This document shows, in pieces, positions 42,756 to 62,324 of a DNA stretch of 64,000 nucleotides (position 1 is the stretch's first letter; each line of letters starts with the position of its first letter). This stretch comes from Candidatus Eiseniibacteriota bacterium. Lineage in GTDB: Bacteria > Eisenbacteria > RBG-16-71-46 > CAZAMP01. A program made the translations under genes and the position numbers. The stretch covers positions 5,056,001 through 5,120,000 of the forward strand of contig OZ245046.1 in assembly GCA_965224245.1 (NCBI GenBank). The letters are read 5' to 3'. The notes under the pieces were generated by a model. It was given only the letters and a program-made list of their open reading frames with translations, did no database searches and was not told the DNA's origin.

Positions 42756-43223
42756 ATGATCCGATCCCCCGAGATGGCCGATCTCCGCCGATGGACCGCC
42801 GCGGCCTCGCTGGCCGCGCTCGCGACGTGTGCCGGATGCGCCGGCGACTCCGCGGGTCCGACGACACCGCGCACCGATCCGCCGACCGGCGGCGAGATCT
42901 TCCTGCTCGACTTCGACGCCTACGTGACGCGGGTCGCGCCGGTCCTGTCGACGAGCGGCTGCGCGGCCGCCGGCGACTGTCACGGCGGAGGGATCCGCGG
43001 CACGTTCGAGCTGTCTCCCGAGGATGCCAAGGACCACGCCTTCGACTTCCAGCAGGTGGTTCTTCAGGTGGCCCCGTACACGCCCGACGCGAGCCCGATC
43101 CTGACCAAGCCTCTCGCGTCCGATGCCGGCGGCGAGCCACACGCGTTCGAGCCGTTCCCGAGCACCGACGACGACGGGTATCGCGCGATCGCCGACTGGA
43201 TCCACGAAGGGGTCTTCGAGTGA
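42756..43223 (+). CDS. Lipoprotein with an atypical CX5CH putative haem-binding motif (alternative start 42774)
   Basis: Lipobox-like LATCAGC; V.PVL...GCAAAGDCHGG; S.IL.KPL...H; I..WI..G as in planctomycete-type cytochrome domains. Confidence 0.65.
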   Translation: MIRSPEMADLRRWTAAASLAALATCAGCAGDSAGPTTPRTDPPTGGEIFLLDFDAYVTRVAPVLSTSGCAAAGDCHGGGIRGTFELSPEDAKDHAFDFQQVVLQVAPYTPDASPILTKPLASDAGGEPHAFEPFPSTDDDGYRAIADWIHEGVFE

Positions 43224-43945
43224 TGCGCCTCGTGTGCCGGGTCGCCATTGCGGGTGCGCTCTCGGCCTGTCTCCTTGCCTCGCCCGTGCGCGCCCGCGAT
43301 GCGTCCGCCAACGACGCGCCCGGGGAGGCACGCGACGCGACCCGGGCCGCGCTGACCAGCCAGGGATCCGGCGAGCCCGCAACGTCCGACGCGTCCGCCG
43401 ACGCGATCGCCGAAACGACCGCCGACGGTTCGCTCGACGCGCTCGTCCCCGACGTGGCCCGCGATCCCTGGAAGCTGAGCCCCGGCACGCGCCCGTTCGC
43501 CGGACGCTTCACCTTCGGGGCGGCGTACGGCTCGCTGGGTGACCATCGCCTGTACGCGCTATGCGCCGCCTACAGCCCGAGCGCCTGGCTCTCCTGGGAG
43601 GCCGCGATCGGACACAACCCGGGCGACGCCGTCCATGCGCTCTTCCACACCCTGTCGGCGCACGTTCGCCACCCGCTGCCGTGGCGGCTCCAGCCCTACG
43701 GAACGATCGGGTTCGGACAGGCCATGGTGTTTCCCGGCACGAGCATGAACGCCGACCCCGTCACCGAGAACGTGCTCACGGTCGGCGGCGGACTCGAGAT
43801 CTACATCCGTGACGACGTCGCGCTCCGGGGCGAGGTGCGTCAGGCCACGGTCTTCGGCCCGGAGCGAGGCTCCGAGCGGACCGCGCGATACGACTACGCC
43901 GAGGCCACGATCGGCCTCGCGTTTCACAGACGAGTCAGAAACTGA
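43223..43945 (+). CDS. Outer-membrane beta-barrel protein (OmpA/OmpW-like size)
   Basis: TGATG overlap, signal peptide, LQPY.T.G.G, GGGLE.YI...VALRGEVR amphipathic strands. Confidence 0.7.
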   Translation: MRLVCRVAIAGALSACLLASPVRARDASANDAPGEARDATRAALTSQGSGEPATSDASADAIAETTADGSLDALVPDVARDPWKLSPGTRPFAGRFTFGAAYGSLGDHRLYALCAAYSPSAWLSWEAAIGHNPGDAVHALFHTLSAHVRHPLPWRLQPYGTIGFGQAMVFPGTSMNADPVTENVLTVGGGLEIYIRDDVALRGEVRQATVFGPERGSERTARYDYAEATIGLAFHRRVRN

Positions 43946-44052
43946 ACGAGCGTCGCGGCACCGGACGCGTCACACGCCGCGGACCGCGTACGCCCATCAG
44001 CGGGGACGCGCCGAGCCGGGCCTGGCGGGGGCCCGCGGCGCAGGAGGCGATC

Positions 44053-46101
44053 ATGCTGAGACACCCGAGCACCCGCGACGTCGCGCCCCCGCGACCGTTG
44101 CACCGTCACCTCGTCACGCCGGGGCTGGTCGCGACGGCGGCCGGGCTGGCGCTCGTGTCGACCGGGTGCCGCGACAGCGCGCCCGACGATCTGATCCAGG
44201 AAGAAGAGACCACCGAGGCGCTGGTCTTCGTGAAGACCGAGGGCGAGGAGACGCTCAACCGGAGCTGGGCCCACAGCAACCTGTACAAGCTGTCCCCGAT
44301 CGCACCCGACGGCGAGGTCATCCCCCTGACCGACTACACCGGCGCCAGCGTCTCGGATCCGTGCGTGTCGTTCGACGGCCGGCGGATCCTGTTCGCGATG
44401 CGCCCTCCGGGCGTATCGAGCAAGAACATCTACGAAATCGCCGCCGACGGCACCGGGCTCCGTCAGGTGACCTCGGGCGGCGGACACGACTTCGATCCGC
44501 TGTACCTGCCCGACGGCCGCATCCTGTTCACGAGCTCCCGCGACGGTGAGATGGACGAGTACAACCACTCGCCGTCCGAGCACCTGTATCGGTGCAACTC
44601 GGATGGAACGGGCCTGGAGCGGCTCAGCTTCAACCAGTCCGACGACTTCGACCCGTTCCTGCTCCCCAGCGGCCGCATCGGCTACACGCGCTGGGAGCAC
44701 TTCGGCACGTTCAATCGCTTCCCGCTCTTCGTGACGAATCCCGACGGGACGGGCACGTTTCACCACTACGGTCCTCACTCCCGGAACTTCTTCCACGCGC
44801 AGACGACACCCGACGGCCGCATCATCGCGATCGAGTCGACGATGGTGAACGAGGACGCCGGGCCGATCGCGCTTCTGAAGCTCGAGCAGGGTCCAGCCGA
44901 TCCGGTGCTGGGCGGCTCGTCGCTGCACTGGGATCGGCTCACCGTGGACGTGGGCACCGACGGCGCCCCGTGGACCTACGGCGCATTCAAGTACCCGTTC
45001 CCGATCGGCGGCAACCGCTTCGTCGCGTCGTACACGCTGCCCGCGGCCACCGAGGAGGACGTGGACTACGGGCTGTACACGTTCACGCTCAACCAGAGCG
45101 GCGCGGGCACGGTCGAGGAGCCGGCCACGTTCACGCTGAACGACATGACGTTCCTCTACAACGATCCCGCGACCAACGAGTACGACGCGCAGCTCCTGGC
45201 GCCGCACGGACGTCCGCCGGTGGTGCCCGACGTCGTGGACCCCTCGGTGGACTACGGCGTATTTCTGGCCCAGGACGTCTTCAACCGGGGCACGAACGAC
45301 GGTCAGGAGCGGCCGGTCCACGGAGTCGATGCGATCGACGAGATCGCCGTCATCGCGGCGCGCCCCACGATGCGGGGCATGAACAACGGCACCTCGGCCA
45401 ACGAGTTCGAGATGCGGGCGCTCATCGGCTTCGCGCCGGTGCAGCCGGACGGCTCGTTCCGGATCAAGGTGCCGGCCGACACCCCGATCACGTTCGCGAC
45501 GCTCGACGACCACGACCGCGGGTTCGTGGTGAAGCGGACGTGGCTTTACGTGCGCCCCGGCGAGGAGTTCGATCAGTGCACCGGGTGTCACGAGGATCGC
45601 GACGCGGGCGGCCTGCGCCCGACGAACCCCGACCCGTTGGCCGCGCACCTCGAGCCGACGGACCTGAACCTCCCCGCGTCGGCGTTCCGGATCATCAACT
45701 ACGAGAGCAGCATCGCGCCCATCGTTGACGCGAAGTGCGTGTCCTGCCATCAGCCCACGTACGTGGAGCGCGACTCCATACTGGCCGACGAGACCGTGGT
45801 CACCGTGGTCGACACGATCCCCGCACCGGCCAACCTGGATCTGACGGCGACGCCCGACACGCTGATGATGGAGAACGAGATCTTCCCCCGCGGCTACGTG
45901 AACCTCTCCGGGGAATCCGAGCACCTCGAGGAGCAGGTCGTGCGCCCGGCGTTCCCACGCCGGTCGGTGCTGATCGACTACGTGCTCGGCCTCGGCGAGC
46001 GCGCGGCGCTCGGCCCCCACCCCGAGGACGAGTACGCGCTCACGGACGAGGAGAAGGAGACCTTCAACCTCTGGGTGCTACTGGGCGCCCAGTACAAGTA
46101 G
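44053..46101 (+). CDS. Hydrazine-synthase-alpha-like lipoprotein: PD40/TolB-like propeller, HZS-alpha middle domain, two CxxCH
   Basis: Lipobox VSTGC; DP.VSFDG.RILF; DFDP.YLPDGRI.F.S.R; YTRWEH; APVQPDGSF..KVPADTP; RPGE...CTGCHE; CVSCH. Confidence 0.8.
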   Translation: MLRHPSTRDVAPPRPLHRHLVTPGLVATAAGLALVSTGCRDSAPDDLIQEEETTEALVFVKTEGEETLNRSWAHSNLYKLSPIAPDGEVIPLTDYTGASVSDPCVSFDGRRILFAMRPPGVSSKNIYEIAADGTGLRQVTSGGGHDFDPLYLPDGRILFTSSRDGEMDEYNHSPSEHLYRCNSDGTGLERLSFNQSDDFDPFLLPSGRIGYTRWEHFGTFNRFPLFVTNPDGTGTFHHYGPHSRNFFHAQTTPDGRIIAIESTMVNEDAGPIALLKLEQGPADPVLGGSSLHWDRLTVDVGTDGAPWTYGAFKYPFPIGGNRFVASYTLPAATEEDVDYGLYTFTLNQSGAGTVEEPATFTLNDMTFLYNDPATNEYDAQLLAPHGRPPVVPDVVDPSVDYGVFLAQDVFNRGTNDGQERPVHGVDAIDEIAVIAARPTMRGMNNGTSANEFEMRALIGFAPVQPDGSFRIKVPADTPITFATLDDHDRGFVVKRTWLYVRPGEEFDQCTGCHEDRDAGGLRPTNPDPLAAHLEPTDLNLPASAFRIINYESSIAPIVDAKCVSCHQPTYVERDSILADETVVTVVDTIPAPANLDLTATPDTLMMENEIFPRGYVNLSGESEHLEEQVVRPAFPRRSVLIDYVLGLGERAALGPHPEDEYALTDEEKETFNLWVLLGAQYK

Positions 46102-46112
46102 GGGACGAGACG

Positions 46113-46718
46113 ATGTCGACATCCGGCGTCCTGAGCTGGCTCACGAAGCTCGGCCTCGCGATCCTGGCTGCGACCGCGGCCTGGGGTGACACACCGAGCC
46201 GCGACACCGCGGGCGCGACCGGACTCGCCGCGGCTTCGCCCGCTGCGGTACCGGCATCGCACCCGGACGGGCCGCTCGGGTCGCACCGACTGGCCACGCT
46301 GGATGGAGGGGATCTTCGTCTCGCCGACCTCGCGGGTGAGATCGTCGTCGTGAACTTCTGGGCCAGCTGGTGCAAGCCGTGCCGGAAGGAGGTTCCGGAG
46401 CTGAACGACGTGCACCGGTGGCTGTCCGGACGTGAGGGACGCGTCGTGGCCGTATCCATCGACCACGATCGTGCCCGGGCGGCGCGCTTCGCGAGCCGTC
46501 AGGGCATGGCGATGACGGTGTGTCACGACGGGCCCGACGGGCTGGCGCGAGCGCTCGACATCTCCAGCGTGCCGTTCACGCTGGTGCTGGATCGTGACGG
46601 TCGCATCGCCCACACGGTCTCTGGCCAGGTCGACGAGGGCGTGCTGGTGGACGTCCTCGCCGGTCTGGACCCCGCGCCACGAATGGCGGAGGTCGGCGCC
46701 GAGGAGGACGCGCGATGA
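46113..46718 (+). CDS. TlpA/ResA-like thiol-disulfide oxidoreductase
   Basis: VNFWASWCKPCRKE.P, cis-Pro loop VP, LDRDG.I; signal peptide. Confidence 0.9.
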   Translation: MSTSGVLSWLTKLGLAILAATAAWGDTPSRDTAGATGLAAASPAAVPASHPDGPLGSHRLATLDGGDLRLADLAGEIVVVNFWASWCKPCRKEVPELNDVHRWLSGREGRVVAVSIDHDRARAARFASRQGMAMTVCHDGPDGLARALDISSVPFTLVLDRDGRIAHTVSGQVDEGVLVDVLAGLDPAPRMAEVGAEEDAR

Positions 46719-46951
46719 AACGGCTCATGCGACGGACGCTGCGCCTCGTCGTGACGGTCGCGGCACTCGCCACCGCCGCCTCGTCGCTCGGGTGCGGGGC
46801 CAAGGTTTACGAGCGCGAGTTCCTCGCCGATCCCGTGATGTCCTTCGACGTGGACGCCGACGAGGAGCGTCGCGAGCTCAAGTGGCTCGAGGCACGCGAG
46901 GGCTCGGCGGGCGGCGCCGGTGGCGCGGGTGGGGGGTGCGCGTGCAACTGA
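46715..46951 (+). CDS. DUF4266 small lipoprotein
   Basis: Lipobox SLGC, YER..LADP.M, REGS.GG.G..GGGCACN terminus. Confidence 0.88.
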   Translation: MKRLMRRTLRLVVTVAALATAASSLGCGAKVYEREFLADPVMSFDVDADEERRELKWLEAREGSAGGAGGAGGGCACN

Positions 46952-48081
46952 CGACCTCCCGAGTCCTGATCGCCGCTGCGGCCGTGATCGCCACGCCCGC
47001 CGACGCCGATCTCCTCGACGTGGACGAGCAGAGGGCCGACTACCTGTTTCGCTACTTCGCCGATTCCGACCACGTGCACGTGTTCTCGCACTACGGGGAG
47101 TATGCGATCTCCCTCGAGAGCGACGCCCGGCTCGAGCTCTACTGGAACCGCGAGTCGCTGGTGATTCCCGGAATCGACGCGCCGGCCGGGAGCGCCGAGG
47201 CCGTGGATGCGATCACGACCGCGAGCCGGCCGATCGCCAGCGGGGGCGATGCGTTCCGCGACTACACGAAGGTGCGCAACGAGGTCCAGGGCGGGGTCGC
47301 GTACCGGCGGACCACGCTCGGCTACTACGTCTCGACCGAGAGCGACTACTTCGCCCAGCAGGTGACGCTGCGCCTGGATCGCGACCTGCTCGCGGAGACG
47401 CTGAACCTGGCCGCCGGCGGCAGCTACGGATGGGACGTCATCGATCCCCTCGAGGACGCGGACGGGGCCACGCCGGCCGATCACAAGAACACGTGGCACG
47501 GCAACCTGGTGGCCACGATCATCGTCTCACCCACCACGTTGCTCCGGATGGGGGGCGAGCTGACCGTGGTCGACGGTCTCCAGCACAACCCGTATCGCAA
47601 CGTGTACGCCGGTGGCGGGCCCGAGCTCGAGCGACACCCGGATCACCGCGAGCGCCGCGATCTCTTCCTGAAGCTGAGTCAGTACTTTCGCAATCGATCC
47701 AGCGCTCGCGTGGACTATCGGCTCTACGCGGACGACTGGGGGGTGTCGTCCCGGACCTTCGGCGCGCGTCTTCATCAGTACCTGACCGACGCGCTCAGGG
47801 TGCGGTACCGGTACCGCTACTACGATCAGAGCGCCGCGGACTTCCATCGCGAGGAGTACGAGAGCCCGGATGGAATCGATGGACTTCGCACCGGCGACTA
47901 CCGGCTGTCCGCGATGACGTCCCATCTCTTCGGAACGCGGGTCACGCTGGATCTACGCGCGATGTCGACGTCGTCGCCGGTGCTCCAGAGGTTCGAGCTG
48001 GCCGTCGGCTACGAGCGCTACTTCAACTCCAACAACTTCTCGGCAAACGTGTTCGAGTCCGGGCTGACCTACCGGTTCTAG
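46942..48081 (+). CDS. DUF3570 outer-membrane barrel protein
   Basis: GTG-CAA-CTG start overlaps the DUF4266 end; VDAITTAS, S.E.DY, NPYR.V, E.HPD.R.R, YRLY.DDWGV, RYRYY.QS.ADF, DYRLS, terminal YRF. Confidence 0.85.
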   Translation: MQLTTSRVLIAAAAVIATPADADLLDVDEQRADYLFRYFADSDHVHVFSHYGEYAISLESDARLELYWNRESLVIPGIDAPAGSAEAVDAITTASRPIASGGDAFRDYTKVRNEVQGGVAYRRTTLGYYVSTESDYFAQQVTLRLDRDLLAETLNLAAGGSYGWDVIDPLEDADGATPADHKNTWHGNLVATIIVSPTTLLRMGGELTVVDGLQHNPYRNVYAGGGPELERHPDHRERRDLFLKLSQYFRNRSSARVDYRLYADDWGVSSRTFGARLHQYLTDALRVRYRYRYYDQSAADFHREEYESPDGIDGLRTGDYRLSAMTSHLFGTRVTLDLRAMSTSSPVLQRFELAVGYERYFNSNNFSANVFESGLTYRF

Positions 48082-48130
48082 CCCCGGCGCGCGCCGCGTG
48101 CGCGCGACCCCTTCCAACAGGAGGAAGGCC

Positions 48131-49765
48131 ATGAAGCGAGTCGTATTCGGACCGCTGGCGCTGGCGGTCGTCATGGTCGGACCGGCGACGGGAGGGACGT
48201 TCGAGCGATCCCAGCTGTCTCCCGAGCACGGGATCGACGCGGTGACCCGGGCAGTGGCGCGCGAGACCGTGAATCGGGATCTGTTCTCGCGACCGCACTC
48301 AAGCGTTCTCGTGGGCAACGTGGACGTGTACGACACGTTCCCGTACCTGGAAGCGCGATACGTACAGGTCGTGTCGGATCCGGGCTGGAACCGTCTGCTG
48401 TACGGGGAGATCGGCAAGAGCCTGTCGGCCGCCGACGGTCTGGCGGATCCTCACGGACTGGCGGTGGACGCGCGCGGGCGCGTGTACGTGGCCGACACCG
48501 GCAACGATCGGGTCGTGGCGTACGACCTCTCCTACGAGTTCGACGACGTGCACCTGGTGCCCCGGTTCACGGTGGACGACCTGCGCCGTCCCTACGACGT
48601 CGCGGTGTCGGACGGGGGGACACCCTTCGACCCGTCGGACGACCGGCTCTACGTGGCCGACACCGGTCGCAACCGGGTCGCCGCGTTCTCGCTCGGCGAG
48701 AACGGGGCCACGCTCGCGAGCGCAATCGGCGGGCTCGGCAGCGGCACGGGCCGACTGGCCGGCCCGATGGCGATCGCCGTCGGACACCGGAACGGCGTGT
48801 GCACGACCGACGTGTACGTCGCCGACGCACACACGCGGCGCCTGATTCGTCTTCGGGACGGCGCCGACGGTCTCTCCTGGGTGTCCGAGCACCGGCACCA
48901 GGCCGACCTCGTCTCGTCGCTCGACACCGATCACTGGGGCAACGTCTACGCGAGCGAGCCCGGGACCGACACCGTTCGCAAGTACACGCCGGGCCTGTAC
49001 GAGGTGGCCGCGCTCCGTGATGGGCTCGTGCGCCCGCGGGACTTCCACGTGCCGTTCGTCACGGTGCGGGACCACCGCGACGGCTCGGTGACGCGATCGG
49101 GCGAAGCCGGCGGCCTCGTGGTGGAGCAGTGGGCGAGCGACAGCGGCGTCCGCCTGTTCTCGCTGGGGACCGAGGCGACCGATCTCAGCGTGGAGGCCGA
49201 TGCCGGGCTCAGCGCGCGTTTCGTCCTCACCGATCCCGCCGACGTGCGCGTCACGGTCACCGATGCGGCGAACGGCGAGCGCGTCGCCGAGCATCAGGCG
49301 GGTCGACTGGAGGCGGGACCGCAGACCGTGTCGTTCAGCGCCGGGGACTTCGTGCGCCCTCTCGGTGACGGCGACTACCTGATGCGCGTGACGTCGCACT
49401 CGGGCTACGCGTCCGGCGGATCGGACGTGGCCCAGGTCAGCTTCCGCTTCGGTGAGGAGGGTCTCGTGCTGACGCCGACGCGGCCGCTCCTCCTGGGCAA
49501 CCACCCGAACCCGTTCAACCCGACCACACGCGTGCAGGTGCTGGTGCCAGAGAACGCAATCGGGACGCGCGCGGAGTTCCGCGTCTTCGACACGCGGGGC
49601 CGTCTCGTCCATGCGACCGAGCGCGACGTCTCGTCGGCCGGGCTACAGGCATTCGACTGGGATGGCTCGTCACGAGGCGGTCTGGACGCCTCGGCCGGCG
49701 TGTACTTCTACGAGGTCGCGGTGGCCGACGAGCATCTCGACGGCCGAATGGTGCTGATCCGATGA
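48131..49765 (+). CDS. Secreted NHL-repeat propeller with tandem FlgD-Ig-like C-terminal domains
   Basis: Signal peptide; repeated P.GLAVD..G.VYVADTGN.RV; GNHPNPFNPTT...FD.RGRLV...WDG...AGVYFY...RMVLIR. Confidence 0.85.
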   Translation: MKRVVFGPLALAVVMVGPATGGTFERSQLSPEHGIDAVTRAVARETVNRDLFSRPHSSVLVGNVDVYDTFPYLEARYVQVVSDPGWNRLLYGEIGKSLSAADGLADPHGLAVDARGRVYVADTGNDRVVAYDLSYEFDDVHLVPRFTVDDLRRPYDVAVSDGGTPFDPSDDRLYVADTGRNRVAAFSLGENGATLASAIGGLGSGTGRLAGPMAIAVGHRNGVCTTDVYVADAHTRRLIRLRDGADGLSWVSEHRHQADLVSSLDTDHWGNVYASEPGTDTVRKYTPGLYEVAALRDGLVRPRDFHVPFVTVRDHRDGSVTRSGEAGGLVVEQWASDSGVRLFSLGTEATDLSVEADAGLSARFVLTDPADVRVTVTDAANGERVAEHQAGRLEAGPQTVSFSAGDFVRPLGDGDYLMRVTSHSGYASGGSDVAQVSFRFGEEGLVLTPTRPLLLGNHPNPFNPTTRVQVLVPENAIGTRAEFRVFDTRGRLVHATERDVSSAGLQAFDWDGSSRGGLDASAGVYFYEVAVADEHLDGRMVLIR

Positions 49766-53449: not shown

Positions 53450-56400
53450 CGTCGGTCTCATTCTCTCGTCTCGCACGGCTGCTCTCCTGCGTCGGCGCCG
53501 GGGTCGCGATCGGCCAGCTTGCGGTCGCCAGCGTCGCGAACGGGGCGCCGGGCGAGGCCCCCGAGCCCGAGACCGCCGACGCCGCACGGCCGTCATCGAT
53601 CGCGTGGCCGGCCACCGTCGACCCGGACGCGGTCCAATTCGGTCTGGCACTCACGGCCGCGCGGGTGGCCGGACCGGCCCGCGTGGCCGAGATCCTGGAG
53701 GGCCTGAACGTGGCGTCGGCGTCGTTCGAGGGAGCCGACCGCGCCGCGTTCCTCCTCGCGAACGCGTATCTGGAGACCGGTGACGTCCCGGCGTTCCTCG
53801 CCCTCGCGACGGCGCTGACCGATCGCAATCCGCGATCGCCGTACTCGCACTGGATCGCGACACTGCAGGCGATGCTCACCGGCCGGCCGCGCGAGACCGG
53901 CTCGGTGCGGGATGCGCTCGACGACGTGGCCGGTGCGACCGGAGCCCTCCTGGAGTCGCTGGCCTCCCGGGCGGCCACGACGCCGCTCGATGTCGAGCTG
54001 TCGGCGCTTGCGGCACTCGAGCTGGCGAGGCGTGACGTCGCCACCGGCGGCGATCCGACCTCGCGCCTGCTCGCGGTTCCGTCGGCGTCCGTCCACGCTG
54101 CGCGTGCCCGGCACGTGGCGGCCGCGTGGTTGTACGAGGCGGGTCGGCCCGCCGCGGCACGGGGCGTGCTCGACACGCTTCTCGTCGCCGATCCCGACTA
54201 CGCCGATCGGCGAGACGCCGAGCTTCTCCTGGCCGCGATCCTCACCGATGCTGCCGACTGGGAGCGTGCGCTCTCTCGATACTCGGCGATCGACGAGGAC
54301 TGGCGTCGTGAGGACGCCGAGCTCCGCGAGATCGAATCCGACGCCGACTGGGATGCCCTCTGGACGAGGTGGCGCGGCCAGGGAGAGGAGACGATCGCAT
54401 TCGACGGCGATCGGATCGAGGTCGAGCGGCGTGCCGCCGTCGAGCACGCCCTGGTGCCCCGCAGCCCCTCGCCGGACGAGCCCTCTCGCGCGGAGCTGGT
54501 GCCGACGGGCGCGCGCCCACGGGGGGCGCGGGTGCCCGCCCCCGGCGACGACGAGCTGCGCGAGGTGGCCGATCTCGCCCTCACCATCGGGGAGCGTGAG
54601 TCCGAGCGCACACGCCTCTTCGTACGCATGGCCGATCTCGAGGCCGACGCGGCCCGGCGTGCCCGCCACGCCGCCCGCGGCGGCGCACGTCTCGACGAGA
54701 CGCGCGCAGCCCTGGGCGCGGGCGTGGACGAGCTCGAGTCGCTGGCAGCGACGCTGGACGCGCTCGCGGTCGAGCTGGGTGCGGTGCGCGACGACGCGAT
54801 CGGGGTGTTCACCGCACGGGCCGGTCGAATGGCTCGTGCGGCCCGCAGCGCGGTCGTCACGCTGGAGGCGCTGGATCGGTTCTACGTCGGGGGTCCGAAC
54901 CTCCGGAGGGCGACGCCGTCTCCTCCCGGTGTCCCGTCCCCATCGGAGGTGCTGGCGAGCGAGGCCGAGCTGGCCGCGGAGCTGGGGACGTTCTGCGACC
55001 GCCTGACGCGGGACGTGGCCGATCTCATCGCACGCTCGCACGACGAGGCGTGGCGCCCGGGGCTCGTGGACTCCGCGCGAACGCTGCTCGCCCGCGGGCA
55101 CGCACTCCTGCAGGACGAGACGGGACTCGCCGCGCGCGTGCGGGTCGCCGGCGACGATCACGGCGCGGCGGCCGCCGTTCGTGGCCGGCTGGCGGCGCTG
55201 GACGGTGAGCTGTCGAGGCTGCGTGCCCGCCGGGCCGAGGTCCGCGAGGCGACCGCGCGCCACGCGATCGACGTCCGCCGCCGGGCGCTCGCGTCCGAGC
55301 GAGAGGCCATCGACTACGGTCTGGCGACCGCGACGTACTGGTGCTCGCGCGGAGCGGAGCCGGGGCCGGGCGCACGGGCCGGCGAGCGCGAGGCGATCGC
55401 GCGCTACGGTGCCTTCCTCGTCCACTACCCCGAGAGCGGGGCCCGCGGGGAGGTCCGGTTCAACCTCGCCGACCTCGAGCTCAGCGCGGCACGGCGGGCG
55501 TTTCGCGAGACGATGGCGCGCTACGTCGAGGAGCACGCCATGGACGATGCGCAGGCCGGGAAGGTGTCGGCCCTGTTCGTCGACGTTTCGCCGGCGCTGG
55601 CGCTCTACGACGCGATCCTGGCCGAGGACCCGGGCTTCGCACACCGGGACGCCGTTCTCTTCAACGCGGGGATGCTGCTGGCCGACCAGGGAGACCCCCG
55701 GGCCGAGTCACACCTGGAGGCGCTGGTCACCGAGCACCCGAGCTCGGAGTTTCATCAGGAGGCCCAGCTGCGGCTCGGCGATCTCGCGTTCGATCGGGCG
55801 AGCTACCTGCGCGCCGCCCCCGCCTACGAGGCGGCCGCGTGCGGTGACGATGCCGGTCACGCGGCGATCGCGCTGTACAAGCTCGGATGGTCTCACTTCA
55901 ACGTCGACGCGTTCGAGGCGGCGGCCGATGCGTTTCGCCGCTTGCTGGACCTCTACGACACCACCGACGTCCGGGACGTGGGCGCCGATCTTCGAGTCGA
56001 GGCCGAGGATTACCTGGTGCACGCACTCTCCCGGGCCGGTGGAGCGGACGCCTTCGCGGCGTACTTCGGCTCGATCGGCCCGCGCGACTACGAGCCGCGC
56101 GTCCTGGATCGGCTCGCCCGGCTCCTTCGCCGGTTCAGCCTCTACTCCGAGTCCATCGCCGCCGATCGTCTCTTCACCGAACGCTACCCCACGCGGCCCG
56201 GAGCGCTGGTCAGCGCGGCGCGCATCGTGGATGCGTACGCGGCCCGGAACGAGCCCGAGCGCGCGCACGAGGCCCGGCTCTGGTTCGCGCCGATGTTCGC
56301 GCCGGGCTCACAGTGGCGTGCCGCGAACGCCGATGCGGACTCGATTCGCACCGCCGGTGAGACGTTCGCACGGGACGCCTGGAAGACGGTCGCCTTCGAA

Positions 56401-58101
56401 CGCCATCGAGCCGCACGTGAGTCCGGCGCCGGGGCCGACTACGCGGATGCGCGATCGCTGTACGAGACGGTGCTCCGCATCTGGCCGGACGACGCGGACG
56501 CGGCTCGCCTCCATCTCTACGCCGGTGATGCGGCCGCCCACGAGGATGCGTTCGCGGCCGCGGTCTCGCACTTCGGCACCGCCGCCGAGAGCGACAGCCT
56601 CTCGCTGGCCCAGGATGCGAGCTGGCAGCGCGTGAGCGTGACCGACCGGTGGTATCGGGCCACCGCCGAGAGCGACTCGCTGGCCAGTGTGCTCATCTCG
56701 AGCCTGGGAACTCACGTGGACCGGTTCGCCGACGACCCGCGCAACGCCGATCTGAGGTGGCGCCGCGCCACGCTGGCCATGGCGCACGCGCGCCACGCGG
56801 CCGCAATCGCGCTGTTCTCCGACTTCATCGCCTCGCATCCGCTCGACCCGCGTCGCCCCGATGCGGCGAGCATGCGCGCGGACGCCGTCTACGCCACGGG
56901 CGCCTACCGCGACGCGTCCGACGCCTATGCCGACGCGGTCGCGATCGCACGAGCGGCCGGACGCGACAGCCTCGCGGCGACGCTGACCCCGAACGTATCG
57001 GCGTCGTTCTTTCAGCACGTCGAGGCTGCGGTGGCGGCGAACGCGCCGAAGGGCATCGAGGCTTCGCTCCTCTCCACGTTCGCCGATCGCTGGCCCGATC
57101 ACGCGAACGCGCCCGTGGCCCGCTATCGGGCCGGGCTCGCCTGGCGTGACGCGAAGCGCTGGGCGGCCGCGGACTCGGCGCTGACCCGACTGATCGCCCG
57201 TCATCCGGACACGGAGCTCGCGCGCGATGCTCACCTGACGCGGGCGGACCTGTGGAAGGAGGCGGACGAGCCGGCTCGCGCCGCCGACGCACTGCTCGCC
57301 TTCGCGAATGCGTACCCCGACGACGCCGATGCCGGCACCGCGCTACTGGAGAGCGCCGATCTCGTGGAATCCGCAGGGCGGCCCGAGGACGCCGAGCGGC
57401 TTCGCCTCGACTACCTGGATCGTCATCCGGACGACGTCGCGACCGCGATGGAGATCCTGGAGCCGCTGGCCCGACGCGAGCTCGACGGGCTCGACGCCGG
57501 CGCACCCGTGCGCACGCTTCTCGACGGCGAACGTGGGACCCATCTCGCGCGCTACGTGACGCTGGCCGACGCGAACGCCGCGCTGGCTTCTCGCGAGCTG
57601 ATCGCCGAGGTCCGGTTCCGGGAGGCCGAGGACGAGCTCGGGCCGTACCTCGCGCTCCAGCTCACACAGCCGATCGACGCGGCGATCGAGCGGCGAAAGA
57701 GCCGGCTCGAGGCCGTGATGACCCGGTACCAGCGCGCGGCCGACGTCGGCGTGCCCGAGTGGACGCACGCCGCGGCGCACCGGATCGGCGAGGCACTCGT
57801 CGACTTCGGACGGGCGCTGGAGGTCAGCGAGCGTCCCGGTGATCTCGGCGAGGAGGATCTGTGGGCCTACGAGGACGTGCTGTTCGAGCAGAGCTGGACG
57901 TTCTACGACCGGGGCGAAGCGGTCTGGACCGATCTCCTGTCCGGCACCGGGGTCTTCCCCGACCACGACCCGGGCGGGTGGCTGGCCCGCGCCCGCGCGT
58001 CGCTGTGGTCACGACTGGCCACGCGGTTCTCGCTGAAGCCCGACTTCGAGTATCCGGTCGCGACGGCGACCCCGCCGACCCTCACCGCGGAGGCGAACTG
58101 A
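53446..58101 (+). CDS. Giant periplasmic TPR protein, GltD/AgmU-like (~1550 aa)
   Basis: Signal peptide, long coiled coil, many TPRs (EA..RLG...F, ALYKLGW..F), C-terminal GV.EW..AA..RIG...SERP..L....Y...L.EQ. Confidence 0.8.
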   Translation: MTSVSFSRLARLLSCVGAGVAIGQLAVASVANGAPGEAPEPETADAARPSSIAWPATVDPDAVQFGLALTAARVAGPARVAEILEGLNVASASFEGADRAAFLLANAYLETGDVPAFLALATALTDRNPRSPYSHWIATLQAMLTGRPRETGSVRDALDDVAGATGALLESLASRAATTPLDVELSALAALELARRDVATGGDPTSRLLAVPSASVHAARARHVAAAWLYEAGRPAAARGVLDTLLVADPDYADRRDAELLLAAILTDAADWERALSRYSAIDEDWRREDAELREIESDADWDALWTRWRGQGEETIAFDGDRIEVERRAAVEHALVPRSPSPDEPSRAELVPTGARPRGARVPAPGDDELREVADLALTIGERESERTRLFVRMADLEADAARRARHAARGGARLDETRAALGAGVDELESLAATLDALAVELGAVRDDAIGVFTARAGRMARAARSAVVTLEALDRFYVGGPNLRRATPSPPGVPSPSEVLASEAELAAELGTFCDRLTRDVADLIARSHDEAWRPGLVDSARTLLARGHALLQDETGLAARVRVAGDDHGAAAAVRGRLAALDGELSRLRARRAEVREATARHAIDVRRRALASEREAIDYGLATATYWCSRGAEPGPGARAGEREAIARYGAFLVHYPESGARGEVRFNLADLELSAARRAFRETMARYVEEHAMDDAQAGKVSALFVDVSPALALYDAILAEDPGFAHRDAVLFNAGMLLADQGDPRAESHLEALVTEHPSSEFHQEAQLRLGDLAFDRASYLRAAPAYEAAACGDDAGHAAIALYKLGWSHFNVDAFEAAADAFRRLLDLYDTTDVRDVGADLRVEAEDYLVHALSRAGGADAFAAYFGSIGPRDYEPRVLDRLARLLRRFSLYSESIAADRLFTERYPTRPGALVSAARIVDAYAARNEPERAHEARLWFAPMFAPGSQWRAANADADSIRTAGETFARDAWKTVAFERHRAARESGAGADYADARSLYETVLRIWPDDADAARLHLYAGDAAAHEDAFAAAVSHFGTAAESDSLSLAQDASWQRVSVTDRWYRATAESDSLASVLISSLGTHVDRFADDPRNADLRWRRATLAMAHARHAAAIALFSDFIASHPLDPRRPDAASMRADAVYATGAYRDASDAYADAVAIARAAGRDSLAATLTPNVSASFFQHVEAAVAANAPKGIEASLLSTFADRWPDHANAPVARYRAGLAWRDAKRWAAADSALTRLIARHPDTELARDAHLTRADLWKEADEPARAADALLAFANAYPDDADAGTALLESADLVESAGRPEDAERLRLDYLDRHPDDVATAMEILEPLARRELDGLDAGAPVRTLLDGERGTHLARYVTLADANAALASRELIAEVRFREAEDELGPYLALQLTQPIDAAIERRKSRLEAVMTRYQRAADVGVPEWTHAAAHRIGEALVDFGRALEVSERPGDLGEEDLWAYEDVLFEQSWTFYDRGEAVWTDLLSGTGVFPDHDPGGWLARARASLWSRLATRFSLKPDFEYPVATATPPTLTAEAN

Positions 58102-58102
58102 C

Positions 58103-59047
58103 ATGCGTGCATCCCGATGGATCGTCACGTGGATGGTCGGCGGAGCGCTGCCCGTGCTCCTCGCCGGCTGTGGCGGTGTGCACCGCTCGGGCGAAGATCG
58201 CCTGGCCGATGCGCGCACCGCGGATCGGCTCGGGCACGCGGATGCCGAGGTGCTCCTGGCCGAGGCCGCCACGCGGCGCGCCGAGTTCCCGGACGAGCCC
58301 TACTGGCCGTATCGGATGGCCCGCGTACATCTGGCGCGCGGCGAGAAACGCGAGGCGATGTCGTCCCTCGGGGACGCGCTCCGCCTGGATCGCACGTACG
58401 AGCCGGCGCTGCTTCTCCTGTCGAAGGTCTACTTCGACCGGGGTCGTCATCAGGAAGCCGTCGACCTCATCGAGGGCGCGCGTCGCGCGAGCGCCGGCGA
58501 CGGGGCCGCGTCGGGCCTCTCCCCGCGCCTGGCGGCCGCGCTCGCGCTGCACCACGACGCGATGGAGGCCTGGGCCGACGCCGACGCGATCGTCGACGCC
58601 CTCGAGGATCCCGCGTCGGCGGGCGTCGGATCGGCGCTCGCGTACGTCGCGCTGAAAGGCGAGGACCCCGCGCGTGCGTCCGCGCACGCAGAGGCCGCAC
58701 TCGCCGGCGATGACGACAGCGCCGTGAACCTGAACAACCTCGCCGTCAGCCGGCTTCGCGCCGGGGATCCGGTCGCCGCCCGGGAGGCGCTCTCGAGGGC
58801 GATCGAGCGCGATCCCGATCTGGCGAGCCCGTACTACAACCTCGCGGTGACCGAGCTGTTCTTCTTCCTCGACCGCGAGCGCGCCGCCGAGTGGTTCCGG
58901 AAGTACCGAGAACGTGCCGACGGCAACGGGCCAGCCGACGTGTTCGACCCGGACGGACTGGCGGGCATGCTGGGGGATGTCACCCCCGAACGGCTGGCCG
59001 CAGCCGACGGCGACGAACACGACATGCCGGAAAGGACCACACCATGA
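58103..59047 (+). CDS. TPR lipoprotein, GltE/AglT-like
   Basis: Lipobox LLAGC; NNLA...G....A......AI..DP....YYNLA......D...A...F.KY. Confidence 0.75.
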   Translation: MRASRWIVTWMVGGALPVLLAGCGGVHRSGEDRLADARTADRLGHADAEVLLAEAATRRAEFPDEPYWPYRMARVHLARGEKREAMSSLGDALRLDRTYEPALLLLSKVYFDRGRHQEAVDLIEGARRASAGDGAASGLSPRLAAALALHHDAMEAWADADAIVDALEDPASAGVGSALAYVALKGEDPARASAHAEAALAGDDDSAVNLNNLAVSRLRAGDPVAAREALSRAIERDPDLASPYYNLAVTELFFFLDRERAAEWFRKYRERADGNGPADVFDPDGLAGMLGDVTPERLAAADGDEHDMPERTTP

Positions 59048-59409
59048 GGCACGACTTTCGCAACGCCTGTCGGGTCGCGGCACTGTGCGCGGTGGCGATC
59101 GGCATGGGCTCTCCCGGCCCGATCGAGGCCGCCGAGGCCGCGTTCACGCTCGAGGACATCACGATCGAAGGCACGGTCGACGTTCCCGAGGTCCTATTCA
59201 TCTCGGGACGCGATCAGGTGAGGTTTCCGAGCACGATGCACCGAACGTATCTGACGTCCGCCGCGGAGCTGGCGAGCCGGGCTCCCCGCGACGTGCGGGT
59301 CATCGTCTGCTGGCGGGGTCTTCTCTGCAGTCGATGGGGCGCCACGGCGCCGGCGGCGACCGAGCCCGGTCCGGCCGACGCGCCGGACGCGGACGTCGAG
59401 ACGGACTGA
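59044..59409 (+). CDS. Small exported protein, GltF/CglF-like
   Basis: ATGA overlap, signal peptide, LEDITIEG.VDVPEVLFI..R motif. Confidence 0.65.
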   Translation: MRHDFRNACRVAALCAVAIGMGSPGPIEAAEAAFTLEDITIEGTVDVPEVLFISGRDQVRFPSTMHRTYLTSAAELASRAPRDVRVIVCWRGLLCSRWGATAPAATEPGPADAPDADVETD

Positions 59410-59527
59410 GCGTCGAGAGACTCGTTCCGGAGCGCACCGGGGACGGTCGGGCCGGGACACTGGACACGTTTCGAGGATCACATCGATCGGCATGTGCGCG
59501 CCGACGCGCGCCCGGAGGAGCAGCGCC

Positions 59528-60271
59528 ATGGATCTGTTCGCGACGATTGCCGGCTTCTTCAGAGGCGGCGGCCCCTTCATGTACGTGATACTCGGCGTCG
59601 GCGTGCTGATGGTCGCCATCGTCGTCGAGCGGTTCCTCGTGATCGGACGCGCGTCGCGGATCAACACGTCCCGCTTCGTGGCCGATCTCCAGGCCTGCCT
59701 CGAGAAGGGCGACGTGGCCAGGGCGCGAGAGCTGTGCCGTGGCACCACGCCCGCCGTCCGGGTGGCCGCGGCCATCCTCGGAGATGGGTCCGGTGACCAG
59801 CAACGCCTTCAGAACACGGCCGACGGCGCGGCGACGCTTGCGCTCCCGCGCCTCACGAAGCGTCTTCCGCACCTGAACACGCTGGCCAACACGGCCACGC
59901 TCCTCGGCCTCCTGGGAACGATCTTCGGGCTGACCACGGCGTTCTCGGCGGTGGGCGCCGCCGACCCCGCGCAGCGCTCCGCGTTCCTCGCGGCCGGCAT
60001 CTCGCAGGCGCTCAGCACGACCGCCTTCGGACTCATCGTCGCGGTGCCCGCGCTCCTGGCGCACGGCTTCCTGGTGGGCAAGGTCGAGGGTGTCGTCGCC
60101 GACGTGGACGAGGTGAGCGTGAGGCTCGTCAAGCAGATGTCGCGTCCGCGGATGACGACGGCGGGCACCTCGGCTCCGGGTCTGGCCCAGAGCACGGCCG
60201 CGCGCGCGACCGCACCGCGACTGGCCCCGCCGGCTCCGGCAGCCGGCACACCCCGTCGGGGAGCCGCGTAG
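59528..60271 (+). CDS. MotA/TolQ/ExbB proton channel subunit (AglR-like)
   Basis: GG.FMY.I, ERF, ATLLGLLGTIFGL, GISQAL.TTAFGL.VAVP; GGAGGAG RBS. Confidence 0.92.
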   Translation: MDLFATIAGFFRGGGPFMYVILGVGVLMVAIVVERFLVIGRASRINTSRFVADLQACLEKGDVARARELCRGTTPAVRVAAAILGDGSGDQQRLQNTADGAATLALPRLTKRLPHLNTLANTATLLGLLGTIFGLTTAFSAVGAADPAQRSAFLAAGISQALSTTAFGLIVAVPALLAHGFLVGKVEGVVADVDEVSVRLVKQMSRPRMTTAGTSAPGLAQSTAARATAPRLAPPAPAAGTPRRGAA

Positions 60272-60274
60272 AAC

Positions 60275-60799
60275 ATGGATGTTCGTCGCACCGGCCGGAG
60301 CTATCGACGACTCATCGAGGCCGACATCGAGATGCTGCCGCTGATGAACCTCTTCATCGTGCTGATCCCGATGCTGCTCCTGTCGGCGGTGTTCGTCGAG
60401 GTGACGGCGATCGACATGGCGATGCCAGGGGCGGATCCATCCGAGAGCGCGCCGGAGGAAGAGCCGTTCCGGCTCTCGGTCGAGATCGCGCCCGATGCAT
60501 ACGTCATCGACGGCAATCGCGTCGATCGCCGGGTCATCGACTGGGGGACGCCGGCGGGGACACCCTCGCCGGATGCGGCACACGAGACGCTCCGCGCGGC
60601 GCTGGCCGGGATCGCCGAGCGGCATCCCGAGAACCGCGCGGTTCAGATCCTGTCCCGACCCCGGACGCGCTACCGCGAGATCATCGCCGTGATGGACGCG
60701 TCACGAGAGGCCGGTCTGCCGCACGTCGGACTGGGAGACGCGGCCGCCCCCCGCGGTGTCGGCGACGTTGCCGTCCGCGACGTGACCAACGAGGGCTGA
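60275..60799 (+). CDS. ExbD/TolR family subunit (AglQ-like) with Asn at the canonical Asp position
   Basis: MLPLMNLFIVLIPMLL.SAVF TM helix, Y..II.VMD..REAG. Confidence 0.85.
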   Translation: MDVRRTGRSYRRLIEADIEMLPLMNLFIVLIPMLLLSAVFVEVTAIDMAMPGADPSESAPEEEPFRLSVEIAPDAYVIDGNRVDRRVIDWGTPAGTPSPDAAHETLRAALAGIAERHPENRAVQILSRPRTRYREIIAVMDASREAGLPHVGLGDAAAPRGVGDVAVRDVTNEG

Positions 60800-60801
60800 C
60801 G

Positions 60802-61299
60802 ATGCACCGAACCTGCCACTCCGGTCGGCGCTCGATCGCGTCCCTGAGACGCTCGGGCGGGATCCGACTCACGTCGATGATGGACATCCTGACTGTCCTG
60901 CTCCTCTTCCTGTTGAAGAGCTTCGTCGTCGACGGCGAGGCGATGACACCGCGGGCGGGCATCGATCTTCCCGAGTCGACGGCGGAAGGAAGTCCGGATC
61001 CGTCGCTCGTCGTGGCCATCCAGTCCGACGGGATCGTCCTCGAGGACGAGCTGGTCGCGTCGCTGGCCGAGGTACGCGACGGCGGACTCGAGATCTCCGC
61101 CCTGAGTGAGCGTCTGGACGCGGTCTGGACCCGCATGGACGCGCTGGCGCGGCGTCGTGGCGAGCGCGAGGCCAGCGCACCGACGGCGACGATCCAGGGC
61201 GATCGCGATCTGGAGTTCGACGTCCTGCAACGCGTGATGTTCACGCTCGCCGAGAACGGGTTCGAGGACATCTCCCTGGCGGTCATCAAGAAGTCCTGA
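60802..61299 (+). CDS. ExbD/TolR family subunit (AglS-like)
   Basis: LTSMMDILTVLLLFLLKSF, LP.S, IQGD....F..L.RVM.T....GF..I.LAV. Confidence 0.88.
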   Translation: MHRTCHSGRRSIASLRRSGGIRLTSMMDILTVLLLFLLKSFVVDGEAMTPRAGIDLPESTAEGSPDPSLVVAIQSDGIVLEDELVASLAEVRDGGLEISALSERLDAVWTRMDALARRRGEREASAPTATIQGDRDLEFDVLQRVMFTLAENGFEDISLAVIKKS

Positions 61300-61307
61300 G
61301 GGTGGGC

Positions 61308-62324
61308 ATGGCGACACGTGACCGCAAGTACGACCGGCCACTCTTCGCGGGGCCCGACTCGCTCTTCGCGAAGTGCCTGGCCGGCGCGTCGATGCTCGGC
61401 GCTCTGGTGCTGATCGTCGTCTTCGTGACGCCGCTGCGCGAGCGGGAGCTCGTGACGGTGGACGAGGTGCCGAAGCGCCTGGCCAAGCTCCTGATCGCCG
61501 AGCCCGAGCCGGCGAGGACCCCACCGCTCGTGGCCGAGGCGGTGACGCTCGCCGAGCCGGTCGAGGCGCCCGTCGAGCCGGAGGTCACGCCCGAGCCCGA
61601 GGCGACCGCACCCGAGCCGAGGCCCACCCGGCGCCGGAAGCCACCGGAGGCCGTGCAGCGGGATCCCCGCGCGGGCAAGGCGGGTCGGGACCGCGCGGCG
61701 CGCGAGGTCACCGAGACACTCGCGTCCACGACGAAGAGCGTCGAGTCGGCGCTCACGAGCCTGTCGGCGAGCCTGGCCGGTGCGAGCGACGCGCCGGAGT
61801 CTCCGAGGCGCCCGCGCCGCCAGCGGCGCACGCGGAGCGGCCGGTCCGGCGGGCAGGTCACCGCGGCGGAGACCGCGGTCGTCTCGGCGGGATCGCGGGC
61901 GGCGACCGACGTCGCGCTGGAGACCGAGCTGGTCGCCGTCGAGTCGCTGGGCTCCGGGGGTGGCGCGTCGAGTCCGGGAGGATCCGGCGCCGGCGCGAGC
62001 TCGGGTGTCGACGTCCATCGTTCGACCGCGTCGCTGCTCTCGGTCGTTCGCCGGTACGCGGCCGGGATCCAGTTCTGCTACGAGAACGAGCTGAAGCGCG
62101 ACCAGACGCTCAGGGGCAAGATCGTCGTGTCCCTGACGGTCTCGCCGGAGGGTCGCATCGAGGCGGTCGATCTCGTCGAGGACACGCTCGGCTCGCCGGC
62201 GCTCGGCTCGTGTGCGCTCTCGCAGATCCGAGACTGGCGTTTCCCGCCGATCGACGAGGGCCGGGTGACGTTCCGGATCCCGTTCGTGTTCACGCCCCCC
62301 ACGACGGTGGCGGATCGGGACTGA
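61308..62324 (+). CDS. TonB-like protein with an AgmX/PglI C-terminal domain (GltG-like, no FHA; alternative GTG start 61302)
   Basis: Short cytoplasmic N-terminus, one TM, Pro/Glu-rich linker, IQ.CYE.EL.....L.GK..V...V...G.....L..C....I..W.FP....PF.F. Confidence 0.88.
   Translation: MATRDRKYDRPLFAGPDSLFAKCLAGASMLGALVLIVVFVTPLRERELVTVDEVPKRLAKLLIAEPEPARTPPLVAEAVTLAEPVEAPVEPEVTPEPEATAPEPRPTRRRKPPEAVQRDPRAGKAGRDRAAREVTETLASTTKSVESALTSLSASLAGASDAPESPRRPRRQRRTRSGRSGGQVTAAETAVVSAGSRAATDVALETELVAVESLGSGGGASSPGGSGAGASSGVDVHRSTASLLSVVRRYAAGIQFCYENELKRDQTLRGKIVVSLTVSPEGRIEAVDLVEDTLGSPALGSCALSQIRDWRFPPIDEGRVTFRIPFVFTPPTTVADRD

Follow-up and report, generated by a model that had tools for sequence, protein, structure and literature searches.

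An envelope gene cluster of Candidatus Eiseniibacteriota in which a flavinylation-linked redox block and an Agl-Glt-like motor block are kept side by side

In Myxococcus, the genes of the Agl-Glt machinery follow one another in the order gltD, which encodes a secreted tetratricopeptide repeat (TPR) protein of 1191 amino acids (aa), gltE, coding for a second secreted TPR protein, gltF and gltG, whose product is a TonB-like membrane protein (PMC3169522). GltF is a secreted, domain-less protein of 89 aa encoded between gltE and gltG, and in the account given there it is confined to Myxococcales and Bdellovibrio. The same source describes an ancestral core in non-gliding bacteria, made of aglRQS, gltD, gltE, gltG, gltC and one extra gene, whose function it gives as unknown. 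In the predicted Agl-Glt model of PMC11761067, three barrels stand beside a propeller lipoprotein and TPR connectors, and the TonB-like domain pairs with a small adaptor. A second group of described systems is formed by the flavinylation clusters of ApbE, DUF3570, a thioredoxin-like protein and DUF4266, some of which include DsbD as well (Meheust et al. 2021, PMC8238504). As for the alpha subunit of hydrazine synthase (HZS), PMC12758564 reports no homologue with another confirmed function, and none has been confirmed for any superfamily member outside anammox. Here we analysed a window of 64,000 nucleotides (nt) of Candidatus Eiseniibacteriota DNA (contig OZ245046.1, positions 5,056,001 to 5,120,000), in which positions 42756-62324 hold a cluster of 19 genes, g1-g19, with resemblances to each of these groups. 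The cluster was divided into a redox block (block A, g1-g10) and a motor/TPR block (block B, g11-g19), and the two were found to be kept together in related genomes.

Since the window has about 70% G+C, genes were called by third-position GC content and frame, followed by translation. This procedure returned 19 genes, all on the forward strand, in agreement with the earlier note on this DNA, which had been prepared from the sequence alone and had described co-oriented genes with many start/stop overlaps and with signal peptides, lipoboxes or membrane anchors in nearly all products. Overlaps were indeed present at seven junctions (g1/g2 by 1 nt, g4/g5 by 4, g5/g6 by 16, g7/g8 by 4, g8/g9 by 7, g12/g13 by 4 and g14/g15 by 4), 10 gaps measured 1-16 nt, and the only larger ones were those between g2 and g3 (107 nt) and between g15 and g16 (82 nt). 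The g10/g11 junction, which is the border between the two blocks, measures 9 nt in the window. Judged by eye, all 19 products carry a signal peptide, a lipobox (g1, g3, g5, g8 and g14) or a transmembrane anchor (g16-g19). Annotation of each open reading frame with the hidden Markov models of Pfam and NCBIfam upheld nearly every domain call. A consensus scan of positions 41000-60900 returned no promoter-like site (0.6 expected) and three terminator-like sites (3.4 expected), a result that is uninformative for such an organism. Among sequencing runs, four of a single study were found to contain this DNA, and no RNA run was listed.

The conservation of the cluster is far beyond chance. In a first set, anchored on g11, a homologue was detected in 10 of 40 relatives; where enough sequence was available, the full g1-g19 series was recovered in order from genomes G021, G027, G036, G020 and G016, and part of it from G023 and G038. 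In G005, G032 and a fragment of G019, g1-g10 are inverted as a block that still abuts g11, with the divergent starts lying 400-550 nt apart. A second set was collected with a g3 profile and consisted of the best 80 loci, mostly from Candidatus Eisenbacteria, Eiseniibacteriota and Krumholzibacteriia. In all 80, g1-g13 were colinear as far as the flanks reach, and in the loci with room for the gene concerned g2 was found in 77/77, g8 in 62/62, g11 in 57/57, g12 in 54/54 and g13 in 49/49; g4 (66/69) and g5 (67/69) were the exceptions, every other gene being always found. A further set of 20 genomes was read over 20 kb from g3 by tblastn, and all of them showed block A, g11-g13 and g19 in order, with a few misses among g1, g4, g5 and g9, and with g14 undetected in two genomes and g15 in two. 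As these genome sets overlap and belong to one class only, their counts are not independent.

The association of the two blocks was measured over the phylum in a sample of 206 genomes from 18 families, the present genome included, taking E ≤ 1e-100 as a strong match to g3 and E ≤ 1e-20 as a strong match to g11. Strong g3 matches occurred in 65 of the 206 genomes, 16 more giving weak propeller matches only, while g11 was strong in 67 and weak in five. Both genes were strong in 63 genomes, g3 alone in two, g11 alone in four and neither in 137; g3 and g11 are thus found together in 63 of the 69 genomes holding either. One genome positive for both (G083) is unpublished, and without it the figures for g3, g11 and the pair become 64, 66 and 62 of 205. 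In the two g3-only genomes, G099 and G102, g3 lies on contig-edge fragments; among the g11-only ones, G117 and G048 possess block A genes in loci cut by contig ends, and the G169 locus breaks at a run of N. The blocks are adjacent across seven families and through the inversion, and these results bear out the proposal that redox and motor blocks co-occur side by side across the phylum. Since presence and absence of the two genes agree in 200 of the 206 genomes although the cluster is patchily distributed, the blocks appear to have been gained or lost together.

In our reading, to which we assign a probability of about 0.5, two autonomous modules have been coupled in this lineage to form a single machine that spans the envelope and whose function is presumed from its parts. 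This reading is favoured by the co-occurrence in 63 of 69 genomes, by the joint patchiness in seven families, by the adjacency that persists through the inversion, by the 9-nt g10/g11 junction and by the mobility of g10, which travels with block A in the inverted loci and with block B in genome G127. The SH3-barrel protein g10 is therefore a candidate hinge between the two blocks.

Within block A, g3 (44053..46101) is the most conserved gene of the cluster, with 63-75% identity across the 80 best loci. It encodes an HZS-alpha-like dihaem lipoprotein of 682 aa (HZS_alpha 63.5, PD40 38.4) laid out as a beta-propeller, a middle domain and two CXXCH motifs, both of which are invariant in the alignment. 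The g3 profile matched PDB entry 5c2v_A with an E value of 2.5e-26 in five colinear segments over the full length, which shows g3 to be homologous to hydrazine synthase alpha from end to end. The hydrazine synthase equivalog NF052339 was failed (94.6 bits against a cut-off of 800), and none of the other cluster genes matched a Pfam or NCBIfam model of the beta or gamma HZS partners. Homologue searches with g3, as well as with the tail of g19, gave close relatives only. At two sites (G155:C1:2512053-2514055 and G047:C24:35261-37218) the g3 orthologue was met in several pieces with TGA stops inside, as expected of a broken gene or of sequencing errors; G155 is a single-contig assembly with 86% completeness.

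The first gene of the cluster, g1 (42756..43223), codes for a 155-aa lipoprotein with a Cys-x5-Cys-His motif that matched no known family, and none of 10 members gave a Pfam match at E ≤ 1. The pattern C.{2,6}CH was present in 29/29 orthologues, straight after the first helix of a helical AlphaFold2 model (predicted local distance difference test score, pLDDT, 81). A Foldseek fold search returned a cytochrome c6 as top hit at an E value of about 8 and nothing at E ≤ 0.001, the VIA fold comparison gave a best Z of 4.3 (FoxE 4.0, PccH 2.9), and the hhalign comparison with the C-terminus of g3 was weak (E 0.011, probability 3.9%). The CX5CH lipoprotein call therefore stands as regards the motif; g1 possibly contains a c-type cytochrome-like domain, with haem binding as a putative property.

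The next three genes encode the proteins shared with the described flavinylation clusters. The g4 product (46113..46718) is a TlpA/ResA-like membrane-anchored thioredoxin (AhpC-TSA 70.2, Redoxin 65.1) whose ResA (79.9) and TlpA (68.5) scores both lie under the equivalog cut-offs and whose CXXC motif was found in 27/27 orthologues. The g5 gene (46715..46951) codes for a DUF4266 lipoprotein (PF14086, 55.2 bits) ending in GGGCACN; the C-terminal CXC occurred in 25/27 orthologues, and the same C-terminus was found in a distant lineage represented by the metagenome contig L143. The g6 product (46936..48081) is a DUF3570 outer-membrane barrel (PF12094, 128.4 bits), modelled by AlphaFold2 as a 16-strand barrel with no plug domain (pLDDT 85); its Foldseek neighbours are generic porins (OmpG, Occ and BcsC barrels) and a terminal Phe occurs in 22/29 orthologues. 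Strands 3 and 4 are joined by a long loop with an invariant VDAITTASRPI motif that aligns with VDGITSATRRA in a paralogue and with a canonical DGTTGAS in the L143 orthologue, at the same place. Proven ApbE substrates carry the motif [S/T]GA[S/T] (PMC8238504), and a strict [ST]GA[ST] was observed in 2/29 g6 orthologues only, elsewhere in the protein. From the alignment we infer that VDAITTAS is a variant ApbE flavinylation site of g6.

The g7 gene (48098..49765) encodes an NHL propeller with a FlgD_ig/type IX secretion system (T9SS)-type tail (NHL 48.1, FlgD_ig 50.4). The tail passes TIGR04183 (25.7 bits against a cut-off of 23), and the protein shows 38-50% identity in relatives. SprA of the T9SS and many FlgD_ig/T9SS-type tails are also encoded in the genome, and g7 is probably displayed on the cell surface. 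The 240-aa secreted product of g2 (43223..43945) is a probable small outer-membrane barrel with a conserved C-terminal FYRxIxP, its OMP_b-brl match reaching 21 bits against a cut-off of 28.7. Neither g8 (49762..50391), a lipoprotein of 209 aa, nor g9 (50385..51059), a secreted protein of 224 aa, matched any Pfam or NCBIfam family; conservation within the cluster is lowest for g9 (26-41% identity), which showed neither a barrel family match nor a clear C-terminal barrel signal. Finally, g10 (51062..52000) combines an SH3 domain (SH3_3 28.4) with an outer-membrane barrel, which scored 58 bits with TIGR04565 against a cut-off of 60 and bears a terminal aromatic residue in 26/30 orthologues. Of the barrel and PepSY calls made beforehand, that of g10 holds, whereas g2 falls short of its family threshold, g9 has no family and g11, the first gene of block B (52010..52576; a secreted protein of 188 aa), shows only a weak resemblance to PepSY (20.3 bits against 24).

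Block B continues with g12 (52580..53449), a secreted protein of 289 aa with no family match, whose look-alikes in a protein atlas (scores 0.94-0.91, in Eiseniibacteriota and Gemmatimonadota clusters) serve as a lead only. The g13 gene (53446..58101), in the position of GltD, encodes a secreted TPR protein of 1551 aa (TPR_6 52.8) in which three stretches matched TIGR02795 (YbgF; 94.7 against a cut-off of 90.1). A TPR lipoprotein matching several TPR families (g14, 58103..59047) occupies the position of GltE, and a 121-aa secreted protein with no family match (g15, 59044..59409) that of GltF. The alignment of g15 showed the conserved motif RTLxDIHIEGEIPVPQVLFITARDQRRF, and its best protein-atlas score, 0.85, is again a lead only. 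By size, signal peptide and gene order, g13 resembles GltD and g15 resembles GltF, g13 by its TPR content as well; the GltF-like label given to g15 thus rests on position and size but finds no family match behind it. The model NF033759 was tried as a Glt model and rejected, being the TraA model.

The proton channel of block B is represented by g16 (59492..60271), of the MotA/TolQ/ExbB type (PF01618, 83 bits; TolQ 67.6 and ExbB 47.8, neither reaching the cut-off), and by the TolR/ExbD paralogues g17 (60275..60799; PF02472 52.7) and g18 (60802..61299; PF02472 49.4). For g16-g18 the TolQ/TolR models outscored the ExbB/ExbD models. The acidic transmembrane residue was an Asp in 21/21 g18 orthologues and was replaced in g17 by Asn (20/21) or Gly (1/21), which suggests a heteromeric stator with one proton-carrying subunit type only. 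The last gene, g19 (61302..62324), encodes a TonB-like protein with a transmembrane anchor, a Pro-rich linker and a C-terminal domain of the AgmX/PglI type (NF033768, 89.3-92.4 bits against a cut-off of 40; TonB_C 30.1). Among the six TonB-like hits of the genome only g19 exceeded the AgmX/PglI cut-off, the other five scoring 25-36, and control searches with this model in E. coli and Bacteroides gave matches under the cut-off. No FHA domain was detected in g19 by the Pfam scan. The gene was present in all 28 clusters in which this region is assembled. A complex prediction for g15 (residues 28-121) and the C-terminal domain of g19 (residues 232-340) scored 0.29, compared with a mark of 0.32, and thus speaks neither in favour of binding nor against it.

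An ApbE gene (FAD:protein FMN transferase, that is, a transferase of flavin mononucleotide from flavin adenine dinucleotide) is located at 33418..34494 on the forward strand, 8.3 kb upstream of g1 and outside the region that the earlier note had described; its product has a signal peptide and a Pfam ApbE score of 270.6 bits. Among the related loci with room for it, 45/62 have an ApbE orthologue as the gene immediately preceding g1, in the same orientation and less than 600 nt away; one further locus has it at a distance of 896 nt, and 16/62 have none within the flank; in six related loci it is cut at contig edges. The description of TlpA-DUF4266-DUF3570 as an ApbE-linked cluster is thereby confirmed. 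The spacer of about 8 kb between ApbE and g1 (34491-42540) is an insertion particular to the present genome. It holds a gene for a 6-bladed propeller (34491-35675), a gene on the reverse strand for an adhesin-like protein of 1840 aa (35730-41252; DUF7948, SBBP, PKD and a FlgD_ig/T9SS-type tail), a DUF4920 gene (u1, 41472-41981) and, just upstream of g1, a PepSY_TM_like_2 gene (u2, 41986-42540). Neither u1 nor u2 was found in any related locus of the three sets (0/10, 0/80 and 0/20); both were rejected as members of the system, and the ancestral unit therefore consists of ApbE and g1-g19. In the present genome u2 could feed the redox module, since PepSY-like membrane proteins are named in PMC8238504 as one flavinylation-linked electron-transfer class.

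Elsewhere in the genome two further DUF3570 paralogues were located (G000:C1, about 2770933-2772527 and 3914873-3915877), one of which immediately adjoins a second ApbE gene. With a third ApbE gene near 2.595 Mb, more than one flavinylation-linked system is therefore at work in this organism. On the other side of the cluster, after a gap of 306 nt, a type III glutamine synthetase gene (62631-63998; GSIII_N 257.9 bits) runs past the end of the window. This neighbour is not kept in the relatives checked.

Should the two modules work as one machine, module A (ApbE and g1-g10) would carry out redox reactions outside the cytoplasm, with its anchor in the outer membrane. Thiol electrons would pass from a DsbD-type protein encoded elsewhere (two DsbD-family genes lie outside the cluster in this genome) to the TlpA protein g4, then to the CXC lipoprotein g5 and to the g6 barrel, which ApbE would flavinylate on its loop motif. 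A catalytic or haem step would be performed by g3 and perhaps g1, the g7 propeller would stand at the surface, and g2, g9 and g10 would complete the outer-membrane platform. Module B (g11-g19) would be a relative of the Agl-Glt/Nfs core, in which the TolQ-like/TolR/TolR stator g16-g18, or paralogues where it is absent, would drive g19, acting in turn through a periplasmic scaffold of g13, g14 and g15. Block B would pass the proton-motive force to the redox platform, possibly via g10, and could in this way serve to gate or build the platform or to make its lipoproteins accessible, as TonB acts on receptors and Agl-Glt on CglB. Gene content, domains, synteny, co-occurrence and the barrel model and motif of g6 were observed directly; flavinylation, electron path, physical coupling and substrate are what we infer. 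A narrower version, which we consider unlikely, would see here a new class of energised extracellular redox machine and would have the Glt-core-like proton motor gate or power, through g19 and the TPR shaft, an outer-membrane conduit made of the flavinylated DUF3570 barrel and the HZS-alpha-like dihaem lipoprotein. Electrons derived from cytoplasmic thiols would then reach either an external substrate or the NHL protein, as an enzyme displayed by the T9SS. Were this so, a relative of the Agl-Glt core outside gliding bacteria would for the first time be placed in a functional setting, a question that dates from 2011.

Several observations weigh against such a coupled machine. Of the phylum genomes searched, about two thirds do not have the cluster, and the joined clusters belong to one phylum and, in our sample, to a single class; similar gene sets had been expected in other phyla, an expectation that holds for the redox core alone but not for the joined set, seen in one phylum only. 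Two strict [ST]GA[ST] motifs are missing in 27/29 g6 orthologues. The Glt equivalog models were failed by g19 (GltG 58 against 650, GltJ 54.9 against 450) and by g14 (GltE, NF033758, 25.6 against 225). Accordingly, the resemblance of the distal block to the Agl-Glt core is upheld by gene order, by the TolQ/TolR/TolR composition and by the AgmX/PglI tail, but not by the Glt equivalog cut-offs.

To the same side of the balance belong the cases in which one block, or the motor alone, is missing. In family f17, within one genus (G082 and G080), a diverged block B occurs without block A; it consists of a g11-like gene, a 1886-aa open frame with a g13-like match, ExbB, two ExbD and a TonB-like gene, and its upstream neighbours are a penicillin amidase, a pyruvate kinase and other unrelated genes. 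Genome G127 (94% complete) holds g10-g11-g12 preceded by 8 kb without g1-g9, and has no g3 anywhere. Conversely, the metagenome contig L143 (44% G+C) carries a full-length g3 relative with 37-40% identity in an operon of a small barrel-like protein, an SH3-domain protein, g3, TlpA, DUF4266, DUF3570 and a T9SS-tailed NHL protein of 868 aa (Por_Secre_tail 30.9 against a cut-off of 27). In this contig RNase R and PheST flank the redox core, and both block B and ApbE are absent; the SH3-domain protein has a beta-rich C-terminal half with no barrel family match. Among the 28 clusters with g15-g19 assembled, exbB-exbD-exbD were found in 20 and a diverged exbB-like gene only in two, whereas six have g19 immediately after g15 and are free of exbB and exbD over the next 12-14 kb downstream as well.

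The six clusters without motor genes are L114, L115, L118, L120, L121 and L123 (genomes G113, G152, G108, G114, G139 and G157), and they presumably rely on the stator of a paralogous gene set at another site. The flank upstream of g10 in G127 (L158, G127:C354, 2154-5561) contains a series of ten open frames, each 77-94 aa long and recurring about every 280 nt; it resembles a gene for a repeat-domain protein that stop codons have interrupted, or else an artefact of the assembly.

Stand-alone block B, stand-alone redox core and motor-less clusters indicate that each block is a unit of its own. The earlier note had named as grounds for abandoning its idea that the two blocks should rarely be found together; this is partly the case, as each occurs alone somewhere and the motor is missing in 6/28 clusters. 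All these cases are well accommodated if the locus represents two independent envelope systems that became neighbours by one ancestral juxtaposition, perhaps co-regulated but without contact. The inversion of block A as a unit relative to block B and the dispensability of the motor genes from the locus agree with this view, and since the joined cases all fall in one class, a single ancestral event could explain them. Mere juxtaposition accounts less well for an adjacency kept over seven families and through inversion, for a gap of 9 nt between g10 and g11, for the agreement of g3 and g11 across the phylum sample despite patchiness and for the shifting of g10 from one block to the other. We therefore regard independence of the two systems as a serious alternative, though a less probable one than coupling.

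A TonB-type uptake system, in which a metal or another substrate would be reduced at the outer membrane and imported through an energised barrel, appears improbable. The TonB_C domain of g19, the ExbB/ExbD families of g16-g18 and the PepSY_TM-like u2 just upstream in the present genome are compatible with it, as are the 25 DUF3570 clusters with the VIT1 iron transporter reported in PMC8238504. Uptake, however, would call for parts that the cluster does not show: no TonB-dependent receptor plug or barrel family was matched among the 19 genes in Pfam or NCBIfam, g6 is predicted to be a plugless 16-strand barrel, and the cluster has no inner-membrane transporter. Moreover, u2 shares with u1 its absence from the related loci, and the AgmX/PglI-type tail of g19 is unlike the other TonB paralogues of the genome.

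It is very improbable that the locus encodes a machine for motility on surfaces or for adhesion, comparable to Agl-Glt or Nfs, in which g7 or g3 would be moved or exposed and the redox genes would serve for maturation only: the parts of the cluster do match the Agl-Glt model as given in PMC11761067 (barrels, propeller lipoprotein, TPR proteins, adaptor, TolQRR motor and TonB-like protein), and g7 has its T9SS tail in a genome with SprA, but the cytoplasmic Glt parts were not found (neither an FHA domain in g19 nor a GltI-like gene by Pfam and NCBIfam), the redox genes are the most conserved ones, with g3 63-75% identical compared with 38-50% for g7, and the L143 redox core includes g7 without any motor.

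The coupling of the two modules thus remains the preferred reading. In agreement with the earlier statement that no functional description of the whole assembly was known, our literature search found no description of a joined redox-motor assembly. The locus unites the ApbE/DUF3570/DUF4266 system, in which flavinylation as such has been demonstrated, the HZS-alpha-like superfamily and relatives of the non-gliding Agl-Glt core, all of them poorly understood, and their conserved joining in one phylum offers concrete and testable partners for each of the three. The hosts of the cluster are all uncultured. A natural experiment is provided by the genomes themselves, some of which combine the two blocks while others have just one of them, and which differ in whether a stator of their own is present; the cluster also hints at a role of such motors in bacteria not known to glide.

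Compared with the Agl-Glt/Nfs systems, the cluster shares one TolQ-like and two TolR-like genes (MotA_ExbB and two ExbD), a TonB-like transducer that passes the AgmX/PglI model, a likeness at the domain level only, and a modular evolution in which blocks are added to a motor core. The series g13-g14-g15-(motor)-g19 mirrors gltD-E-F-G in order, size and features as described in PMC3169522, and the cluster possesses barrels and a beta-propeller lipoprotein like those of the model in PMC11761067. It differs in that g19 is devoid of a cytoplasmic FHA domain, in that GltI, GltJ and GltK are absent from the cluster, as is a separate candidate for GltC, and in its haem, flavin and thiol redox proteins, of which the described Glt/Nfs systems have none. 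The present phylum is not among the hosts of the core complex listed in PMC3169522.

Like the ApbE-DUF3570 clusters described in PMC8238504, the locus brings together DUF3570, DUF4266 with CXC, a thioredoxin fold and a secreted ApbE, and DsbD is not co-located, as in 316 of those clusters. Unlike them, it would have one variant TTAS site instead of two [S/T]GA[S/T] motifs, and g4 matches AhpC-TSA, Redoxin and Thioredoxin_8, where PMC8238504 names PF13899. The HZS-alpha-like dihaem lipoprotein, the T9SS-tailed NHL protein, the extra barrels and the motor/TPR block go beyond the clusters as described in that source.

With hydrazine synthase alpha (PDB 5C2V) g3 shares the propeller, the middle domain and the two CXXCH motifs in colinear order, but it is a lipoprotein, its host is not an anammox organism and the cluster contains no beta or gamma homologues. 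The TonB-ExbB-ExbD and Tol-Pal systems resemble the cluster in the families of stator and transducer, in the TolB-like PD40 propeller of g3 and in the YbgF-like TPR stretches of g13, whereas a plug receptor and Pal are both absent here and the Tol/Exb equivalog cut-offs were missed, the YbgF stretch of g13 excepted. The cluster was rejected as the Tol-Pal system of the cell because a housekeeping system would not be lacking in about two thirds of the phylum genomes. Porin-cytochrome conduits such as MtrCAB combine an outer-membrane barrel and redox cofactors with lipoproteins on either side and multihaem wires. The likeness of the present cluster to them, for which no sequence relation was sought, concerns the way of working only, namely a barrel with redox cofactors; in place of multihaem wires, the cluster would rely on a predicted loop-bound flavin mononucleotide in a 16-strand barrel together with a dihaem protein.

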